Positions 1 to 35,491 of a stretch of 64,000 bases of DNA are shown here, one piece after another; the stretch's first letter is position 1, and the number at the start of each line of letters is the position of its first letter. The notes below the pieces were generated by a model. It was not told the DNA's origin. It did no database searches and worked only from the letters and a program-made list of their open reading frames with translations. Position numbers and translations under genes: made by a program. This DNA comes from Minisyncoccota bacterium (GTDB lineage Bacteria; Patescibacteriota; Minisyncoccia; Phycocordibacterales; UBA1006). The DNA lies in the NCBI GenBank assembly GCA_021209525.1, contig JAJOIF010000009.1:22285-86284 (forward strand), given 5' to 3'.

Positions 1-299
1 GTTGGAATAGTTACCGAGCCGCCGCCCATACCAATATGCACATGCGGCTGATTAAAGTTGTTTTGATTCTGTATGTTTTGTTGGTTAAGGTTATGTGTTG
101 ACCATTCTGTAGATTGCTGATTTCCTGAATTCGAGCCCGGTAAACGATCTTGACCAGATGATGCATAGGTAGAAAATGCAGTTGCAAAGAGTAGTGCAAA
201 AGTCATTGCTTTTTTTCGTATCATTTCAATACGCACATCAGCACCAGATTCTGGTGTAGGTGTTTTTTCAGTGCGTGGTTGTGGTGTGAATGATTCCAT
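1..299 (-). CDS. Partial CDS (3' end lies beyond the window start): secreted Q/N-rich protein with an N-terminal signal-peptide-like segment
   Basis: The minus-strand reading frame is open from the window edge to an ATG whose reverse complement sits at 297-299. It translates as MESFTPQPRTEKTPTPESGADVRIEMIRKKAMTFALLFATAFSTYASSGQ..., so the alternative start at 222-224 would give a classic signal peptide. The ORF track missed this gene because its stop lies outside the window. Confidence 0.45.
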   Translation of the reverse strand, partial: MESFTPQPRTEKTPTPESGADVRIEMIRKKAMTFALLFATAFSTYASSGQDRLPGSNSGNQQSTEWSTHNLNQQNIQNQNNFNQPHVHIGMGGGSVTIP

Positions 300-445
300 A
301 TATATGCTTGTATATACAAAGTATATCATGATTTACTACCTAATAATTACATAATATATTATAACATTTTTTATTATAAAGTCAATGTATTGCGGTATGT
401 TTTTTGTTAGCAGTTTACTTTCAGGTTAGAATTCAAGAAAAATGC

Positions 446-474
446 TTGACATATGCACTCATATATGCTATACT
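446..474 (+). promoter_or_regulatory. Sigma70-like promoter: TTGACA (446-451), 17-bp spacer, TATACT (469-474)
   Basis: This is a direct read of consensus hexamers with optimal spacing. A near-identical copy lies at 1317-1345. Confidence 0.6.
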
Positions 475-528
475 ATTCACAACAAGTAGAGCTCTTTGAC
501 ATATATGTTTTTCATCGTTTTTTGATGA

Positions 529-580
529 GTTTGAGAATATAGTGAGCAGAATATACATTGTGCTTGATATATTCTCAAAC
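529..580 (+). repeat. Perfect 13-bp inverted repeat GTTTGAGAATATA / TATATTCTCAAAC (arms 529-541 and 568-580) in the 5' leader of the 599 gene
   Basis: I read this directly from the sequence. It could be a leader hairpin or an operator. Confidence 0.6.
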
Positions 581-598
581 TTAAAAAAACAAAAAACT

Positions 599-1069
599 AT
601 GAAAACAATAAAATTTTTAATACTTGCTGCTCTAGGAGTACTTGTATTACAGTCTTGCACCGACAAAGAAAATTGGTGTACCGGCCCAAATGGTAATCGC
701 TACCCGTGCGAAATCCCTCCTGGCGGTAACCCAGGCGGAGGTAATCCAGGTGGTGGCCAGGGTGGTGGCACGCCTATAGGAGTAGCTACTCCCATCCTGG
801 TAACCCAGGGAGGGACAAATACCCTCCTTGCTTTTGACCAATTCGGTCAAGAGCGCAGATTATTTGTATACACCGGTTCACAGGTATGTACAGATGGCTG
901 GGGAGGTGTATTTCCATGCGGTAGCATGGTGACCCTGGTGACAGAGTCTCCTGCTATGCGATCTGATATACAGATTGCATTTAATAATGGTCAAGCATTC
1001 TATGCTACCATTATCAATACCATCACTGTACAGACAGGGATGGGTTGGGTGACCTATTGGGTCATCTAG
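599..1069 (+). CDS. Secreted lipoprotein-like protein, Gly-rich and Cys-rich
   Basis: The N-terminus MKTIKFLILAALGVLVLQSC has a lipobox-like LQSC. There is a GGNPGGGNPGGGQGGG linker and paired Cys motifs such as YPCE and FPCG. I prefer the ATG at 599 over the track's GTG at 542 because it places the signal peptide at the N-terminus. A terminator follows the gene. Confidence 0.6.
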   Translation: MKTIKFLILAALGVLVLQSCTDKENWCTGPNGNRYPCEIPPGGNPGGGNPGGGQGGGTPIGVATPILVTQGGTNTLLAFDQFGQERRLFVYTGSQVCTDGWGGVFPCGSMVTLVTESPAMRSDIQIAFNNGQAFYATIINTITVQTGMGWVTYWVI

Positions 1070-1088
1070 AGCACCGTAAAAATAAATT

Positions 1089-1116
1089 GCTCTCACAAAA
1101 GTGAGGGCGATTTTTT
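1089..1116 (+). terminator. Rho-independent terminator (GCTCTCAC..GTGAGGGC stem followed by T6)
   Basis: A hairpin plus U-tract lies immediately after the stop of the 599 gene. Confidence 0.6.
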
Positions 1117-1316
1117 ATTGTGTTTTTATTAATTACTCCATCTCCGCAATTTGTGAGGTAGCGAACAAATGTGCAGGGTCTCGGCAGGTCAGACATGCCT
1201 CGTATCTTGCAATGAGTAGTCGGCACAAGCGCCCCAAAGTTTATCAGTGGTGCCAATATTGCGAGATCCCGCACAACTTTTCGCTCGTAAACTCGCTCAT
1301 AGTTTGCGGGAATAGA

Positions 1317-1345
1317 TTGACATATACACTCAATTATGCTATACT
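1317..1345 (+). promoter_or_regulatory. Sigma70-like promoter: TTGACA (1317-1322), 17-bp spacer, TATACT (1340-1345); near-identical to the promoter at 446-474
   Basis: The two promoters match at 28 of 31 positions: TTGACATATGCACTCATATATGCTATACTAT versus TTGACATATACACTCAATTATGCTATACTAT. Confidence 0.6.
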
Positions 1346-1379
1346 ATAAAAAAATTTTCTAACCTTAAAAAATGAAAAA

Positions 1380-1958
1380 ATGAAAAAACTAATCATCGGT
1401 AAAAGTATTGCGTATATAGTATTAGCAATACTTATTTTCGTACTTTCTTCTTGTAAAAAAGAAGAACTGTGCAGAAATGCACAAGGGTACATGGTGCCCT
1501 GCCACACCATCAACCAAAACCCTATTAATGGAGGTGGCGGAAACAATGGCGGTGGATCTACTGAAACAGTATGCCAAGATCATCTTGGTAACACTATTCC
1601 ATGCTTTGAAATAAACGGAGTATACTATACACCCATTGGTGAGCATGTATACGCAGGAGCGTATACTCGCTCAAGTGCCGTGAGTATTGGCACAAATTTA
1701 TGGAAAATCAGTGTTTGTGAGGTAGGTAGACAAACTCACCAGACAAACACTGGCTACATGGCCGATTTGGTTATCTCAAAAGGAACATCGGAGTATTATA
1801 CCGATGACTCTACGATAGCTGCTTTATTTACTGGCCAATTGCGCTACGTAAATGCAGTAAAAAAACCAAGTGGTGAAGTGTTTATAACCTATACAGATCC
1901 ATTTCAGGGTCCGACAGGTACACCATGCACTAACCCTAATCAGTGGGTGATCATTTAG
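1380..1958 (+). CDS. Secreted lipoprotein-like protein, paralogue of the 599 gene
   Basis: The N-terminus MKKLIIGKSIAYIVLAILIFVLSSC has a lipobox. There is a GGGGNNGGGS linker and recurring C-x(8-10)-PC motifs. Its C-terminus QWVII resembles the WVTYWVI end of the 599 protein. Confidence 0.6.
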   Translation: MKKLIIGKSIAYIVLAILIFVLSSCKKEELCRNAQGYMVPCHTINQNPINGGGGNNGGGSTETVCQDHLGNTIPCFEINGVYYTPIGEHVYAGAYTRSSAVSIGTNLWKISVCEVGRQTHQTNTGYMADLVISKGTSEYYTDDSTIAALFTGQLRYVNAVKKPSGEVFITYTDPFQGPTGTPCTNPNQWVII

Positions 1959-1975
1959 TATCACCCACAAACATA

Positions 1976-2006
1976 AAAGCCTCATCGAGAATGATGAGGC
2001 TTTTTT
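1976..2006. terminator. Bidirectional terminator (GCCTCATC-GAGAAT-GATGAGGC plus T6) between convergent genes
   Basis: The hairpin is flanked by an A-run upstream and a T-run downstream. It lies between the 1380 gene on the plus strand and tig on the minus strand. Confidence 0.6.
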
Positions 2007-30629: not shown

Positions 30630-31085
30630 TTGATCATTATGAAATTTATCCATAAAAATGCTCACATTATTATCCCCGCACTCGTAGTGCTCGTTGCTGT
30701 GTTTTTGATTATTCGGGGTGTTCAAAAATCAAAACAACCAGGAACATACGACGCATTTGCACAATGTCTCACCGATAATGGCGTGACCTACTACGGCGCA
30801 TTTTGGTGCCCTAATTGCCAAGCTCAAGGAGAAATGTTTGGCAAGTCAAAGAAATTCATCAACTATGTTGAATGTTCAACGCCACAACGCGGACAAAAAA
30901 CAGTGTGTCGCGAAGCAGGTATTACCTCATACCCAACATGGGACATTGGGTCAGTACGCCTTGAGGGAGTACAATCTTTTGAAACCCTTGCTATGATTTC
31001 AGGATGCGCCCTTCCTGGACAAGAATCAGTGCAAGAGGCAGACGAAACCTTATCAGAAACAAATGGACAAGAGTCAGAATTGTAA
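30630..31085 (+). CDS. Thioredoxin-fold CxxC protein (DsbA/BdbD-like partner of DsbB)
   Basis: The protein has an N-terminal TM anchor and the CxxC motif YGAFWCPNCQAQ. The adjacent gene encodes DsbB. Confidence 0.6.
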   Translation: MIIMKFIHKNAHIIIPALVVLVAVFLIIRGVQKSKQPGTYDAFAQCLTDNGVTYYGAFWCPNCQAQGEMFGKSKKFINYVECSTPQRGQKTVCREAGITSYPTWDIGSVRLEGVQSFETLAMISGCALPGQESVQEADETLSETNGQESEL

Positions 31086-31087
31086 TT

Positions 31088-31633
31088 ATGTTTATTGAAA
31101 CCTTTAATACGAGCATTGCTGTACTCGTAGTGCTCGCTCAAGTTATCGCAGCGCTCTTGTTGTACTTTGTGATTTTTTATAAGCGATTCAAAGACACAGC
31201 AGTGGTAGCATTTCTTGAGAATCAAAGCCTACGCTTGATTACTCTTGTTTCTTTTGTTGGGATAGCAGGATCGCTCACGTACTCAAATATCATTGGCTTT
31301 GAACCTTGTGTGATGTGTTGGTGGCAAAGAATTTTTCAATATCCTGTATTCATTATTTCATTCTTGGCACTCGCTCTCAAAGAAACAAGTAATCGCTTTG
31401 CTGCATATGTAGTTACACTATCGACTATTGGACTTGGATTCTCTGTATATCACTACCTTGTTCAGATGGTAGATAGTGTAACGAGCTCGTGTGATGTGTT
31501 CGGGCAAACAGCATCATGTGCAGGGTATTATGTATTTGAATTTGGATATATCACTATCCCTATGATGGCGCTCACCATATTTGTAAACACTATTTTACTC
31601 TCATTTTTTTATTACAAAAAAGTCCAAAAATGA
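31088..31633 (+). CDS. dsbB: Disulfide bond formation protein B (DsbB/BdbC family)
   Basis: EPCVMCWWQRIFQYP matches the BdbC/DsbB signature C-x-x-C-W-x-Q-R. The protein has four TM helices and a second Cys pair, SSCDVFGQTASCAG. This gene has the only TGA stop I found in the window. Confidence 0.7.
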   Translation: MFIETFNTSIAVLVVLAQVIAALLLYFVIFYKRFKDTAVVAFLENQSLRLITLVSFVGIAGSLTYSNIIGFEPCVMCWWQRIFQYPVFIISFLALALKETSNRFAAYVVTLSTIGLGFSVYHYLVQMVDSVTSSCDVFGQTASCAGYYVFEFGYITIPMMALTIFVNTILLSFFYYKKVQK

Positions 31634-31695
31634 ATTACACGCAAAGCCCAGAAATAAAAACCCTCGCGTAGTGCCAGGGTTTTTATTTATCTACT

Positions 31696-32409
31696 CTACT
31701 TGTTCTTTTTTTCTGCTTTTTCAAGCTCAACAAGATGATCTTGAATAATAATTTCTTCATTTTTTTGATGAACCACTGACTCGACTTGATTAAATCGTGA
31801 AAGGGAAAATACAATCAAGCTTCCCATAAGAATACCAAATATATTCAACGCAAAAATAGAAAAGAATGTGCTTGCGAGATCAAATTGAAAAGAACCGAAC
31901 CCAACTCCCACCATAGCGAGTGGCGGCACTAAAGAAACCGCAATAGCAACCCCTGGCAAGACTTCTGATATTTCTTTTTGTATCCAGGCAAGTGTTGCTG
32001 CTCCACCAGCAGCAATAGCAACTATAAAGTAGAGAAGTGATGTGCGCAAGGAATCATGAATAAGTGTAAATTCTTGAGGCGCACCAAAAAGAACAGTGAG
32101 TAGAACCCCGAGTACAAACACATAGAAAAATGACTTGATCAGAAATTTTGAAACACGACCCACAAGCAACAGATCCCCAACAGAGAAACCGAGTGCAATG
32201 ACGAGCACAGGAGTCAAAAGCGGCGTCACCAACATGCCCCCAATGACAATAGCCGTATTATTAAGGAGTAATCCGGCGGTAATAATAACACTTGAAATAC
32301 TTAAAAGTGCATAATACGAAAAGTCTGGACGGCTTTTTTCAATAAGTTCTTGAACGGTGCGGTATTGCACATCAGGAGATATTGTGAATGATGATTCTGT
32401 GTGTTTCAT
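31696..32409 (-). CDS. Hypothetical polytopic membrane protein (DUF389-like)
   Basis: The hydrophobicity pattern is the only support. Confidence 0.45.
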   Translation of the reverse strand: MKHTESSFTISPDVQYRTVQELIEKSRPDFSYYALLSISSVIITAGLLLNNTAIVIGGMLVTPLLTPVLVIALGFSVGDLLLVGRVSKFLIKSFFYVFVLGVLLTVLFGAPQEFTLIHDSLRTSLLYFIVAIAAGGAATLAWIQKEISEVLPGVAIAVSLVPPLAMVGVGFGSFQFDLASTFFSIFALNIFGILMGSLIVFSLSRFNQVESVVHQKNEEIIIQDHLVELEKAEKKNK

Positions 32410-32428
32410 AGATGGATAGAGATATGGA

Positions 32429-33169
32429 TTATACTGCCATCAAAATATCAATATATGCCCAAAATCCGTCATTGCCTTTTTCCTCAGCAATACATTCTGA
32501 AGCAAGTGATTTCACCACTGAATTTTGAGAAAGAATAGGGAATTGACGATATACCCAATTCACATCATTGCGACGATCTACAATAGTATGCAATGTTCCG
32601 TGCAGTCTCTTACAAAAACCACACTCCATATCTGAGTACTCGATAATAGTGTACTCAGCATCCGGATTTCCTAGAATATGATCTGCGTCACGCACCGCCA
32701 TAATGTTTCGAGACAGTTCACTCTCTGGGCTTTCAATAGTAAAGACACGGTCTCCACTTGCAATAAAACTTGATTGCCCCTCAGCGAGTGCTCCTAAAAT
32801 TCCTTCCCACACCGCTTGTTCTTGAGCACCTTGTACGAGTACGGTGCGCCCATCGCGAGCAAGAATAATACTGTGCGGCGTACCTGTTCCTCCGGTAAGG
32901 CGTGCATTATCAATATCTGCTTCTATTTTTGCAATTTGGTTTTCGCCATTTTCAAGACATGCTGTGAGCGTATCAACATCTGCACCAATTGCTTCTGCTG
33001 CAGCAAAAATGTCCATTGCTTGAGTGGCTTGGTCTTGACCGATTGGCGCACCTCCTTGATTCACCCCTCTGCCACCAAAGGCAAAAATGATCCCGATAGC
33101 AATAATGACGCTTCCTAAAATAATTGCTCCTGGTAATGAAATTTTTTCTGTAGATGTATTTTCTGACAT
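32429..33169 (-). CDS. DsbA-like thiol:disulfide oxidoreductase with an N-terminal membrane anchor
   Basis: The protein carries the CxxC motif EYSDMECGFCKRLH and a thioredoxin-fold GTGTPHSIIL cis-Pro region. Confidence 0.6.
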   Translation of the reverse strand: MSENTSTEKISLPGAIILGSVIIAIGIIFAFGGRGVNQGGAPIGQDQATQAMDIFAAAEAIGADVDTLTACLENGENQIAKIEADIDNARLTGGTGTPHSIILARDGRTVLVQGAQEQAVWEGILGALAEGQSSFIASGDRVFTIESPESELSRNIMAVRDADHILGNPDAEYTIIEYSDMECGFCKRLHGTLHTIVDRRNDVNWVYRQFPILSQNSVVKSLASECIAEEKGNDGFWAYIDILMAV

Positions 33170-33343
33170 ACGATTTATATACTTACTTATATGAATAACC
33201 TATTTATTGTACCACAAAATAGGCAAGGGGTGTGTGTTTCTGAGCGACTTGCTTTCAAGACAAGCGTGTACAAAAATTATTGACTTTTTTATGTCGTTGT
33301 GTTAATATTTGATAAATTTTCTAACCTTGTAAATTAAAAAAAA

Positions 33344-35491
33344 ATGAACAAAAAAATCATCCTTGTTATCTTTTTAGTATTCATGGCATTGTGCCTGTTT
33401 TCAGTAACACAAGCCCAAAATACCTCCGGATCCTTGAATCCAGTAAACACATCAACCATTTCTCATAATCAAGCTCTCTTGGAGGGCGCTGTTGTGGGGA
33501 GTAGTAACCCGGTGTTTGTGTATGCGGAGTGTCGTATAGGATCAGGTAATTGGAACACTGTTTCAGACACCTTAACCCTAAATGCGCCCACACCGACAGC
33601 TGTACAAATATTCGCTCAGAACCTGAGCGGAAATACCACGTACGAATGTCGTTTAGCAACGTATCTACTTGATACTGCGCAAAACAGTATTGGAGCAAAT
33701 GTGTCTAATACGCGAACATTCACTACATTACTTGCACCGCAAGTACCTGTGACAAGCAATGCCACGGTAATTAATCCAACACTTACCACCCTGACGGTGC
33801 GTTTCAATTATGTGTGTGGTAATACGCCCACGACATATACGATTCGCTATGGTACGAGCCCGCTCGTGCCACAATCAGTAGATGTGGTGGTTGCAGGATC
33901 AGGAACAACTGATGTGCTGCTGACAAACTTAAACCCAGCAACGCTCTATTACGTAGAAATTCAAGGATACAATTCTTTATTTTTCTTTGGTAATGTTGCA
34001 ACAGCTACAGGAACAACTACCACACCGGTTGGCCCTATGGGCTCATTGATTAATATCATTCCAGCTGATTACAGCATACAAATGGATGTGATTATTATCC
34101 CTGAACTGAATACTGTAAATGGCCTGGTTCATCTTGTGCATAATGGCACAGTAGAAAATGAATGGACTATCAACGGTGTGCAAAATGTAGATACATTTAC
34201 TATAACGTTAGGTGCTTTACCTATTACTTCGTATCAGTTACGATTGTATATTGATGCTGGTGCGGGTTTCGTTCTCAAAGATGTAAAAAATGTAACTACG
34301 GTCAACTGCCCAGAGCCTGTTATTTCATATAATTGGTTCTTGAATCCAGACACAACACTTCATTTGGATGTATTCTTGGATGCAGACAGTGTGCCACCAT
34401 TTGGTACCAATTTGTTTCTCACGATTCAAAATCTAGGAACAGGATTTATGTTTTATGACAATATAGTATTGACCCAAGTATATGGATCTGAGTCTATATC
34501 ATTCATGCTCAATGAGCTTGAATATGAGTCACTCTATAGGGTAACACTACGCGCAGAAGGTAATTGTGGAAATGTAACTGAAACATTCCTTTTTACAACT
34601 CCTGCAAAAATACTTCCTGATCCGCCTGTATTGCAATTTTTGAATTGGAGCAATCCAACCATCAATAGCATGCGTGTGCCCTTTACTCTTCAAGGTTCTG
34701 AGCTCATGAGCGTGAGGTACACCCTTACCAATACAACAACAAGCACGACTCTTGATGTTGATCAGGAACTGTATGTAGGTATTGGAAGTGGTATGTATGA
34801 ACCAGTATTCGCAGAATATAATCCTGGTCAAAACTTCACCCTTACCGTAACGGTGAGTTATGTGGATTATCCGCAGGTTACTACCACAGAGAATATTAAT
34901 CTCTTTACACAACAAGGTGCCGTACCCGATGTATTCTTGAGCCTTGTATCGGTAGATACAAATTTTGCCGAAGTAAGTATCACATTTTCTGCTGGTGGCT
35001 GGATAACATTTGCAGATGTGCTTTCATTTACACCTCTTGATGTGCTGTCGACTGATTATTTTTTCCTTGGAAGAAATGATTCTGTGTACAGCTTATTGCT
35101 TTTTAATCTTGAACCAAATACGCTTGTAACCGTTCGCGGAAAAATTATAAGTAATGAATTTGGAACTCGCCAAAAAGAAATACAGTTTCACACTCTTCAA
35201 GAAGAAGACACAACTGGCGGAGGAGGCAATCCACCACCGCCACCACCTATCACCTCTATCAAGGATGCCAAAGATGATATATTTTTGAATCCTTATGGAA
35301 CGATAACAACAGAAAAAAATGTTGTCCTGAGCATCTACACATTGCTAGGGCAAAAACTTTTTTCACAAACAATTTCTGCAGGAAGTCACTCATTTGAAAA
35401 ACCTTCGGCTGCCGGTGTATACATATACACTATTGACGCCCAAGAAGATGGACACATGATTCGTTTTTCTGAAAAGTACTACCTAGAGTAG
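33344..35491 (+). CDS. Large secreted or cell-surface protein with FN3-like repeats, a poly-Pro linker and a C-terminal beta-sandwich sorting-tail-like domain
   Basis: The signal peptide is MNKKIILVIFLVFMALCLFSVTQAQ. It is followed by repeated TxYxxxL/YYVEIQGYN modules and the linker GGGGNPPPPPP. The C-terminus NPYGTITTEKNVVLSIYTLLGQKLFSQTISAGSHSFEKPSAAGVYIYTI resembles T9SS/Por C-terminal tails. Confidence 0.55.
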   Translation: MNKKIILVIFLVFMALCLFSVTQAQNTSGSLNPVNTSTISHNQALLEGAVVGSSNPVFVYAECRIGSGNWNTVSDTLTLNAPTPTAVQIFAQNLSGNTTYECRLATYLLDTAQNSIGANVSNTRTFTTLLAPQVPVTSNATVINPTLTTLTVRFNYVCGNTPTTYTIRYGTSPLVPQSVDVVVAGSGTTDVLLTNLNPATLYYVEIQGYNSLFFFGNVATATGTTTTPVGPMGSLINIIPADYSIQMDVIIIPELNTVNGLVHLVHNGTVENEWTINGVQNVDTFTITLGALPITSYQLRLYIDAGAGFVLKDVKNVTTVNCPEPVISYNWFLNPDTTLHLDVFLDADSVPPFGTNLFLTIQNLGTGFMFYDNIVLTQVYGSESISFMLNELEYESLYRVTLRAEGNCGNVTETFLFTTPAKILPDPPVLQFLNWSNPTINSMRVPFTLQGSELMSVRYTLTNTTTSTTLDVDQELYVGIGSGMYEPVFAEYNPGQNFTLTVTVSYVDYPQVTTTENINLFTQQGAVPDVFLSLVSVDTNFAEVSITFSAGGWITFADVLSFTPLDVLSTDYFFLGRNDSVYSLLLFNLEPNTLVTVRGKIISNEFGTRQKEIQFHTLQEEDTTGGGGNPPPPPPITSIKDAKDDIFLNPYGTITTEKNVVLSIYTLLGQKLFSQTISAGSHSFEKPSAAGVYIYTIDAQEDGHMIRFSEKYYLE

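Follow-up and report, generated by a model that had tools for sequence, protein, structure and literature searches.

In Mycoplasma agalactiae and M. bovis, the vpma and vsp genes combine a conserved 5' untranslated region (5'UTR) and conserved signal-peptide codons with mature parts that show no significant homology (PMC2268961). In Borrelia burgdorferi, divergent surface lipoprotein genes of the Erp (OspE/F-related) type are preceded by similar upstream promoters, known as the 'upstream homology box' (UHB) (PMC7002432). Here we analysed a 64,000-nucleotide stretch of a Minisyncoccota bacterium (contig JAJOIF010000009.1, positions 22,285 to 86,284), referred to as the window, in which two predicted lipoprotein genes, geneA and geneB, carry nearly identical promoters. 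Together with 14 kb of upstream sequence, which adds a third lipoprotein gene, geneC, the sequence covered amounted to ~78 kb, and copy counts hold for that stretch; features outside the window are given by their positions on the assembly contigs L001 and L007. The near-identity of the three promoters is probably explained by a modular 5' block common to geneA, geneB, and geneC, through common descent or homogenisation, and a spacer-specific operator is not needed.

The geneA and geneB promoters (TTGACATATGCACTCATATATGCTATACTAT and TTGACATATACACTCAATTATGCTATACTAT, respectively) agreed at 28 of 31 positions, each scored 11/12 against TTGACA-17-TATAAT, and both had a TG extended -10. When this 31-mer was scanned with at most 3 mismatches on both strands of the window, exactly two matches were obtained, and none of 100 dinucleotide-preserving shuffles gave any. 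The third copy (TTGACATATACACTCAATTATGCTATATTAT), ahead of geneC, matched the geneB promoter at 30 and the geneA promoter at 27 of the 31 positions. Lipoproteins were called by pattern only, as a lipobox [LVI][ASTVIQ][GAS]C with a basic N-terminus and a hydrophobic core; the lipobox scan of the ~78 kb returned four open reading frames (ORFs), of which only geneA, geneB, and geneC had the appearance of secreted lipoprotein genes. The 31-mer thus stands before all of the convincing lipoprotein ORFs and before no other gene, which argues that the promoter is not generic. The remaining sigma-70-like sites of the window had spacers unrelated to that of the 31-mer, and a degenerate 31-mer found no match in public genome, metagenome, or viral contig collections.

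Rather than being confined to the spacer, the similarity is part of a larger modular 5' block, consisting of promoter, leader, signal peptide, and terminator, that is common to the three genes. Between geneA and geneC, homology covered window positions 440-588 at 92.7% identity, with a longer match (440-630, 87%) reaching the first codons, and the two terminators were 92% identical over 25 nt (that of geneA versus L001 4881-4905). Between geneB and geneC, it comprised a structured repeat, here called the U element (84% over 147 nt), in addition to the promoter. Because the homology continues into the leader in one pair and into U in the other, the conserved spacer needs no operator. The first-pass annotation had noted the promoter near-identity, which was borne out far beyond chance, and had read the conserved spacer as a sign of either recent promoter conversion or an overlapping operator. 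The former, taken broadly as a shared or homogenised block, is favoured, and the operator is less so, given that the similarity is not spacer-specific. Directly beyond the 31-mer, the upstream regions of geneA and geneB failed to align.

The Erp genes of Borrelia are controlled by operator-binding proteins. A repressor or activator might bind the spacer (…TAT[G/A]CACTCA…), and perhaps a second TTGACATAT in the leader, so that co-regulation would keep the spacer constant. The distal spacer is indeed common to all three promoters of this genome, the geneB and geneC spacers are identical (17/17) next to a U element of 84% identity, and TTGACATAT occurs 7 times in the window against 1.03 expected, recurring at 496 in the geneA leader. 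We nevertheless regard an operator as unlikely, since the distal spacer is not kept before the geneB orthologues of three relatives (contigs L011, L013, and L014), and the close strains L013 and L016 differ at 5 of 17 spacer positions. In an ungapped alignment of seven promoters from five contig sets, which took in those of geneB orthologues and of one other lipoprotein gene of relatives, only TTGAC, the extended -10 TATG, and three bases of the -10 hexamer were invariant. Moreover, the geneA-geneC promoter (27/31) is no better kept than the adjoining leader (93%), and reading of the sequence revealed no dyad symmetry in the spacer that is retained in all three copies. The variability of the distal spacer in relatives argues against a conserved spacer operator and is consistent with descent from a strong ancestral promoter, the copies in this genome being related through recent duplication or conversion. 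The string TATACAC is common to L016 and to the geneB and geneC promoters. The copies of TTGACATAT were located at 446, 496, 1317, 38545(-), 44172, 45513(-), and 48801(-), and their excess may reflect a preferred -35 extension in this genome. A divergent minus-strand promoter within the 31-mer was also considered and dropped, as it was not conserved in geneA or geneC.

The locus resembles the UHB/Erp system in having a common promoter box before divergent lipoprotein genes, a likeness of analogy and not of sequence. In Borrelia, the genes are carried by cp32 prophage plasmids, whereas the present locus is chromosomal, in the clpP-tig interval, with an RNA hairpin predicted to mask the start codon and with the operator unsupported. 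It resembles the Mycoplasma vpma and vsp loci in its clustered lipoprotein genes, reduced genome, conserved 5'UTR and signal peptide, and divergent mature regions. The Mycoplasma system relies on one promoter that is relocated through Xer1-type site-specific inversion at a recombination site within the 5'UTR; here, the genes each have a promoter of their own, all 31-mer copies are on the plus strand with no minus-strand copy in the window, no recombinase was identified (the search was not exhaustive), and there was no sign of phase switching. The promoter spacers contained no homopolymer run that could give phase variation.

Table 1. Features of the lipoprotein locus, the U copies, and the Dsb genes. 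Positions are those of the window unless a contig is named; modules are listed as U element / promoter / leader hairpin.
Feature	Position	Strand	Description	Modules
geneA promoter	446..476	+	-35 TTGACA, 17-nt spacer, extended -10 TGC-TATACT; 11/12 to consensus; one of three 31-mer copies
geneA 5'UTR (leader)	482..598	+	117 nt; long interrupted hairpin ~506-607, basal helix GUUUUUCAU x AUGAAAAC
geneA	599..1069	+	156-aa predicted lipoprotein; lipobox LQSC, Gly linker, two C-x9-PC loops, beta-rich C-terminal domain	no / yes / yes
geneA intrinsic terminator	1084..1119	+	stem and T-run; resembles geneC terminator
U element	1140..1313	+	structured quasi-palindromic repeat, GC 50%, between geneA terminator and geneB -35
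geneB promoter	1317..1347	+	30/31 match to geneC promoter
geneB short 5'UTR	1348..1379	+	remnant of leader-hairpin 3' arm (TTCTAACCTTAAAAAA); 5' arm and apex deleted
geneB	1380..1958	+	192-aa predicted lipoprotein; LSSC lipobox, two C-x9-PC loops, C-terminal domain with conserved Cys pair	yes / yes / no (3' remnant only)
Hairpin terminator	1975..2004	.	between convergent geneB and tig
geneC	~4.8 kb before window position 1		147 aa; lipobox LQSC, Gly/Gln linker	yes / yes / yes
geneC promoter	L007 9851-9881, outside window		third 31-mer copy
U copy	L007 9647-9822		ahead of geneC promoter
U copy (U_D)	L007 2912-3035		between tpiA and rpsN; no promoter or lipoprotein gene near; 124 nt, centre replaced
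Membrane-anchored protein	30630-31085		151 aa, WCPNC motif; no Pfam match; directly before DsbB homologue, partly overlaps its longest reading frame
DsbB homologue	31103..31633	+	PF02600, E=7.7e-15
DsbA-like thioredoxin-fold protein	32429..33169	-	CGFC motif; PF13462 E=2e-10, PF01323 E=2.9e-9

The products of geneA and geneB each begin with a K-rich N-terminus and a hydrophobic core, followed by a lipobox and a Gly-rich linker, and the paired Cys loops are CTGPNGNRYPC and CTDGWGGVFPC in the former and CRNAQGYMVPC and CQDHLGNTIPC in the latter. The lipobox pattern matched MKTIKFLILAALGVLVLQSC, MKKLIIGKSIAYIVLAILIFVLSSC, and ...FSLQSC in geneA, geneB, and geneC, respectively, and the Q at lipobox position -2 in geneA and geneC is unusual. 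In BLASTP, the geneA and geneB proteins aligned over their first ~51 residues only (41% identity, E=0.006). Profile-profile comparison of geneA plus geneC with the geneB family aligned 37 columns at the N-terminus (probability 95%), from the signal peptide through the lipobox to the first Cys loop, and revealed no detectable relation between the mature domains. The geneA and geneC proteins were collinear and 30% identical from end to end (C-terminal BLASTP E=2e-4), and their mature coding regions showed a proportion of synonymous differences (pS) of 0.72 and a third-position identity of 0.30, so that synonymous sites are saturated. No similarity between geneB and geneC appeared in the comparison of mature coding regions. 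The first-pass description of both ORFs as strongly diverged, Cys-paired lipoproteins with a lipobox and a Gly linker was thus accurate, and the term 'paralogous' that it used holds for the N-terminal module and for the regulatory block; for the mature domains, such a relation is not demonstrable.

An exhaustive HMMER search, with geneB alone as the query, identified three clear homologues (E 4.5e-19 to 1e-6). All were lipoproteins with CxDxxGxx[IV]xC loops, and each had a conserved Cys pair in its C-terminal domain; C41, C65, C75, C113, and C183 were invariant in four geneB homologues. In two relatives, the orthologues were 39% and ~32% identical to geneB, while the adjacent tig proteins were 72% and 67% identical to that of the window. 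The gap between these values indicates that geneB is fast-evolving. In the contigs of the relatives, the geneB orthologue adjoined tig and the RNase Y gene (rny), and the clpP-tig interval was syntenic in four lineages. No homologue of geneA was found by word-indexed search, Pfam, or NCBIfam; word-indexed searches with geneB and geneC returned self matches only, and Pfam, NCBIfam, and PDB sequence searches of the lipoproteins gave nothing significant. A match to the epidermal growth factor-like domain of factor VII (E ~0.12) was too weak to be accepted, and the AlphaFold models were unusable, with predicted local distance difference test scores of 41.5 (geneB) and 42.5 (geneA with geneC). The tig protein, used as a synteny anchor, had no match in public genome contigs.

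The clpP-tig interval appeared as a hot spot of small genes for secreted proteins and lipoproteins (L011 3890-6000; window 1-299, minus strand). In L011, it held three paralogues (125, 142, and 90 aa) with the motif AQNxAIDxxRAAxxINxxYxRxxVH and an orthologue of the minus-strand 144-aa Gly-rich gene of the window in the opposite orientation. An ORF upstream in L013 was rejected as a homologue of geneA or geneC (E=0.024 to geneC, not significant to geneA).

The Cys pairs had been proposed to fit a Dsb system encoded at 30630-33169. Both a DsbB homologue and a DsbA-like protein were confirmed there, with a DUF389 gene between the Dsb genes, and the Cys pairs are conserved in the geneB homologues. 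The product of 30630-31085, with its CPNC motif, may be a third thiol-disulfide component. Judged by predicted export, the conserved Cys pairs of the geneB homologues, and the presence of DsbA and DsbB genes, the lipoproteins have the features expected of Dsb substrates.

The second part of the block is the leader. The geneA leader had a minimum free energy of -38.8 kcal/mol (z about -6.1 to -6.9), and its predicted fold paired the start codon; the same was true of the geneC leader, which was 92.7% identical. Four groups of related metagenomic contigs had this fold ahead of lipoprotein genes, with compensatory changes. Across six leaders of four lineages, z ranged from -4.65 to -10.6, and the start codon was paired in five of them and an SD-like (Shine-Dalgarno-like) GGAGG in the sixth. 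The leaders of the geneB orthologues (L011, L013, and L014) had the same architecture (z -7.4 to -10.6), with an upstream UUUCAU(N) paired with (N)AUGAAA in the minimum-energy folds; position -1 covaried with its partner, being C-G in L011 and L014 and U-A in L013. In L016, a perfect 11-bp anti-start match was read from the sequence, without folding. A second lipoprotein gene of L011 (90 aa), whose mature domain is unrelated, had the same hairpin with a basal CCUCC x SD-like GGAGG. The upper stems formed near-perfect duplexes of 16-26 bp.

MAFFT and RNAalifold applied to the six leaders missed the stem because of register shifts, and a hand-specified structure with covariance-model alignment was used instead. 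In the resulting model-fitted alignment of five leaders, 91.7% of cells were paired and compensatory changes were present at 19 of 34 pairs, compared with 2-6 when the partners were slid by 1-3 columns. A covariance model built from three leaders retrieved the geneA leader (E=4e-5) and the geneC leader (E=0.07) and no further convincing copy in the window. At both the gathering cut-off and E<=10, the leader had no genuine Rfam match; the hits returned were below threshold and attributable to chance (miRNA and snoRNA models). The leader is similar to RNA thermometers (fourU/ROSE) and to leaders masking the ribosome-binding site in that a 5'UTR helix pairs with the start region and the basal helix is A/U-rich (U-run x A-run). 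It differs from fourU and ROSE in lacking an Rfam match, in its size (~100 nt with a 16-26-bp upper stem), and in masking the AUG itself in a genome that is nearly devoid of SD motifs.

The geneB UTR could be aligned with the orthologous leaders in their 3' arm and A-rich tail, across a gap of ~90 columns. As it aligned to the 3' arm only, geneB has lost the 5' arm and apex. A segment at 33314-33361, in the 5'UTR of a gene for a 715-aa secreted protein with FN3 repeats (33344-35491), had AAATTTTCTAACCTT in common with the short geneB UTR (81% over 48 nt). In the relatives, the equivalent of this motif is the 3' arm of the leader hairpin; the FN3-repeat gene has a different promoter. In addition, a six-codon upstream ORF (MFFIVF-stop, 505-525) overlaps the anti-start arm of geneA and is identical in the geneC leader. 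It was dropped as a conserved element, since the leaders of the relatives have upstream ATGs without a conserved position.

A Shine-Dalgarno motif preceded only one of the 43 long ORFs of the window, and against this background, masking of the AUG and of the A-rich upstream tract would be a plausible block on initiation. In nine of the 43, a hexamer resembling the -10 element, frequently accompanied by TG, ended 6-8 nt ahead of the ATG, compared with 5.6% of random positions; examples among the long ORF starts are 16853, 38642, 59891, 15192(-), and 16821(-). These patterns suggest that many mRNAs of this genome are leaderless. The hairpin could instead act in RNA processing or stability, as the target of a double-strand RNase or as a stabiliser of the 5' end, or as a palindrome at the DNA level, and not as a translational gate. 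The length and near-perfection of the upper stems would suit a double-strand RNase, and the leader element, being palindromic, also scores on the reverse strand. We consider this doubtful, because every lineage retains pairing of the start codon or SD by the basal helix although the sequence has changed, for example by the compensatory C-G to U-A replacement at -1, and because G-U pairs are tolerated on the mRNA strand only, where more than 12 G-U cells would become A-C mismatches on the opposite strand. RNA processing and unmasking could also coexist. A motif scan of the window for an RNase III gene was negative.

The U element, with a predicted multi-helix fold, occurred in three copies of 124-176 nt with symmetric arms, and its covariance model scored both strands. 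Over the three copies, 97.7% of cells were paired and 8 of 29 pairs showed compensatory changes; none of 500 shuffles equalled this, and slid controls gave 0-2. These compensatory changes suggest selection on the fold. The covariance model found no further copy in the 64-kb window, and a fragment resembling the left end of U lay just upstream of the copy between tpiA and rpsN (~2850-2880). Searches of public metagenome and viral contigs with U patterns and of Rfam (gathering cut-off and E<=10) yielded no match and no real match, respectively. Open frames existed on both strands of U, and a coding function was rejected, as the U_D copy lacks the centre; no feature supported 6S RNA, an integron attC site, a diversity-generating retroelement template, or a retron.

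U was absent at the loci of the relatives, and at the orthologous site in L011, L013, and L016 the T-run of the terminator abuts the -35. In form, not sequence, U can be likened to palindromic repeats and miniature inverted-repeat transposable elements (MITEs) such as ERIC and Correia, being intergenic and 124-176 nt long, with symmetric arms, a long hairpin, presence or absence among relatives, and an end beside a promoter. It departs from MITEs in that inspection of the flanks revealed no clear target-site duplication, in that it has no known partner transposase, and in that the compensatory changes point to selection on the fold. Correia elements carry outward-reading promoters, and a MITE-like element inserted upstream of unrelated lipoprotein genes might similarly have brought in the promoter with U, the leader palindrome, or both. 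The symmetric, terminal-inverted-repeat-like form of a repeat that scores on both strands and is missing from the orthologous sites would agree with such an origin, as would its position 3 nt from the -35 in geneB and 28 nt in geneC and the varied combination of modules (promoter and leader in geneA, U and promoter in geneB, all three in geneC). This origin is improbable in our view, since the U_D copy has neither promoter nor lipoprotein gene, the geneA promoter has no U, and geneB promoters and leaders occupy the same place beside tig in relatives without U, where promoter and leader are therefore ancestral. The homology also enters the signal-peptide codons and recurs at the terminators, and no clear target-site duplication was evident. 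U is thus a lineage-specific insertion, whether a MITE-like repeat or an unclassified structured RNA, and does not account for the promoter identity.

The window sequence was recovered at 99.6-100% identity over 1.5-2.1 kb from three NCBI metagenome-assembled genomes (MAGs) and several independent Logan assemblies, and a 'Candidatus Pacebacteria' MAG encodes a hypothetical protein identical to the geneB product. Several assemblies break within the promoter/leader repeat (contig starts at window 459, 479, and 546), and one contig end shows geneC-type bases at 483 and 502. Breaks and mixed bases of this kind might be taken to mean that the repeat itself arose from chimeric or collapsed metagenome assembly, which is very hard to reconcile with the same arrangement in all of these independent assemblies and with copies that differ from each other at fixed positions. 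In two MAG assemblies, geneA is frameshifted at codon 4 by A-run indels (positions 576 and 609), for which reason geneA is absent from some annotations. The A-run indels, repeat breaks, and geneC-type bases could stem from assembly error, gene conversion, or phase variation.

Under the shared-block explanation, geneA, geneB, and geneC would form a small set of fast-evolving surface lipoprotein genes. The block would comprise a near-consensus sigma-70 promoter with an extended -10, a ~115-nt hairpin 5'UTR, in whose base an upstream UUUUCAU would pair with the AUGAAAA start region, and a lipoprotein signal peptide. The near-identity of the promoters would derive from common descent or within-genome gene conversion of the block, with ordinary selection on the -35 and extended -10 adding to it, while the mature parts would evolve very fast or have been exchanged. 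The promoter would drive strong transcription. In geneA and geneC, the hairpin would mask the start codon, so that translation would need the helix to be opened or cleaved, candidate openers being temperature, a protein or helicase, and a double-strand RNase. In geneB, the ~90-nt deletion of the 5' arm would have left translation ungated and constitutive, and U upstream of its -35 would be a separate lineage-specific repeat inserted there.

Several points weigh against this explanation. The homology blocks, folds, covariation, synteny, and deletion are observed, whereas promoter activity, the transcription start, translational repression by the hairpin, and the opener are all properties that we infer. 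With three copies, gene conversion and purifying selection are indistinguishable, and the number of 31-mer copies is a count for the ~78 kb of the genome seen. The distal spacer string CACTCA, present in all three promoters of this genome and missing from those of the relatives, may hold a lineage-specific operator. The 30/31 identity of the geneB and geneC promoters exceeds that of the adjoining U (84%), with a binomial estimate of p ~0.03, although 15 of the 31 positions are core promoter elements. The leader alignment behind the pair counts was fitted to the model structure and is hence biased toward it; support for the leader comes from about four independent lineages and that for U from three copies.

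Patescibacteria are uncultured, reduced-genome episymbionts whose surface proteins presumably mediate host contact, and to our knowledge almost nothing is known about their regulation. The block offers a concrete and short regulatory unit, in which fast-evolving, unrelated lipoproteins would be placed under one design of promoter, start-masking leader, and signal peptide. It points to where surface variability may be sought in these organisms, following a genomic logic like that of surface variation in Mycoplasma and Borrelia, and the leader and U covariance models can serve for scanning other genomes. If the block is merely a duplicated regulatory region, the finding would be a modest one. 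More tentatively, the leader hairpin could represent an undescribed class of cis-regulatory RNA that gates the translation of surface lipoproteins in Patescibacteria without Shine-Dalgarno motifs and with many leaderless mRNAs, opened by temperature, host contact, a binding protein, or a double-strand RNase, and U could likewise be a structured RNA or mobile repeat not described before. If this possibility holds true, the RNA gate and U would provide a first handle on surface regulation in these episymbionts.

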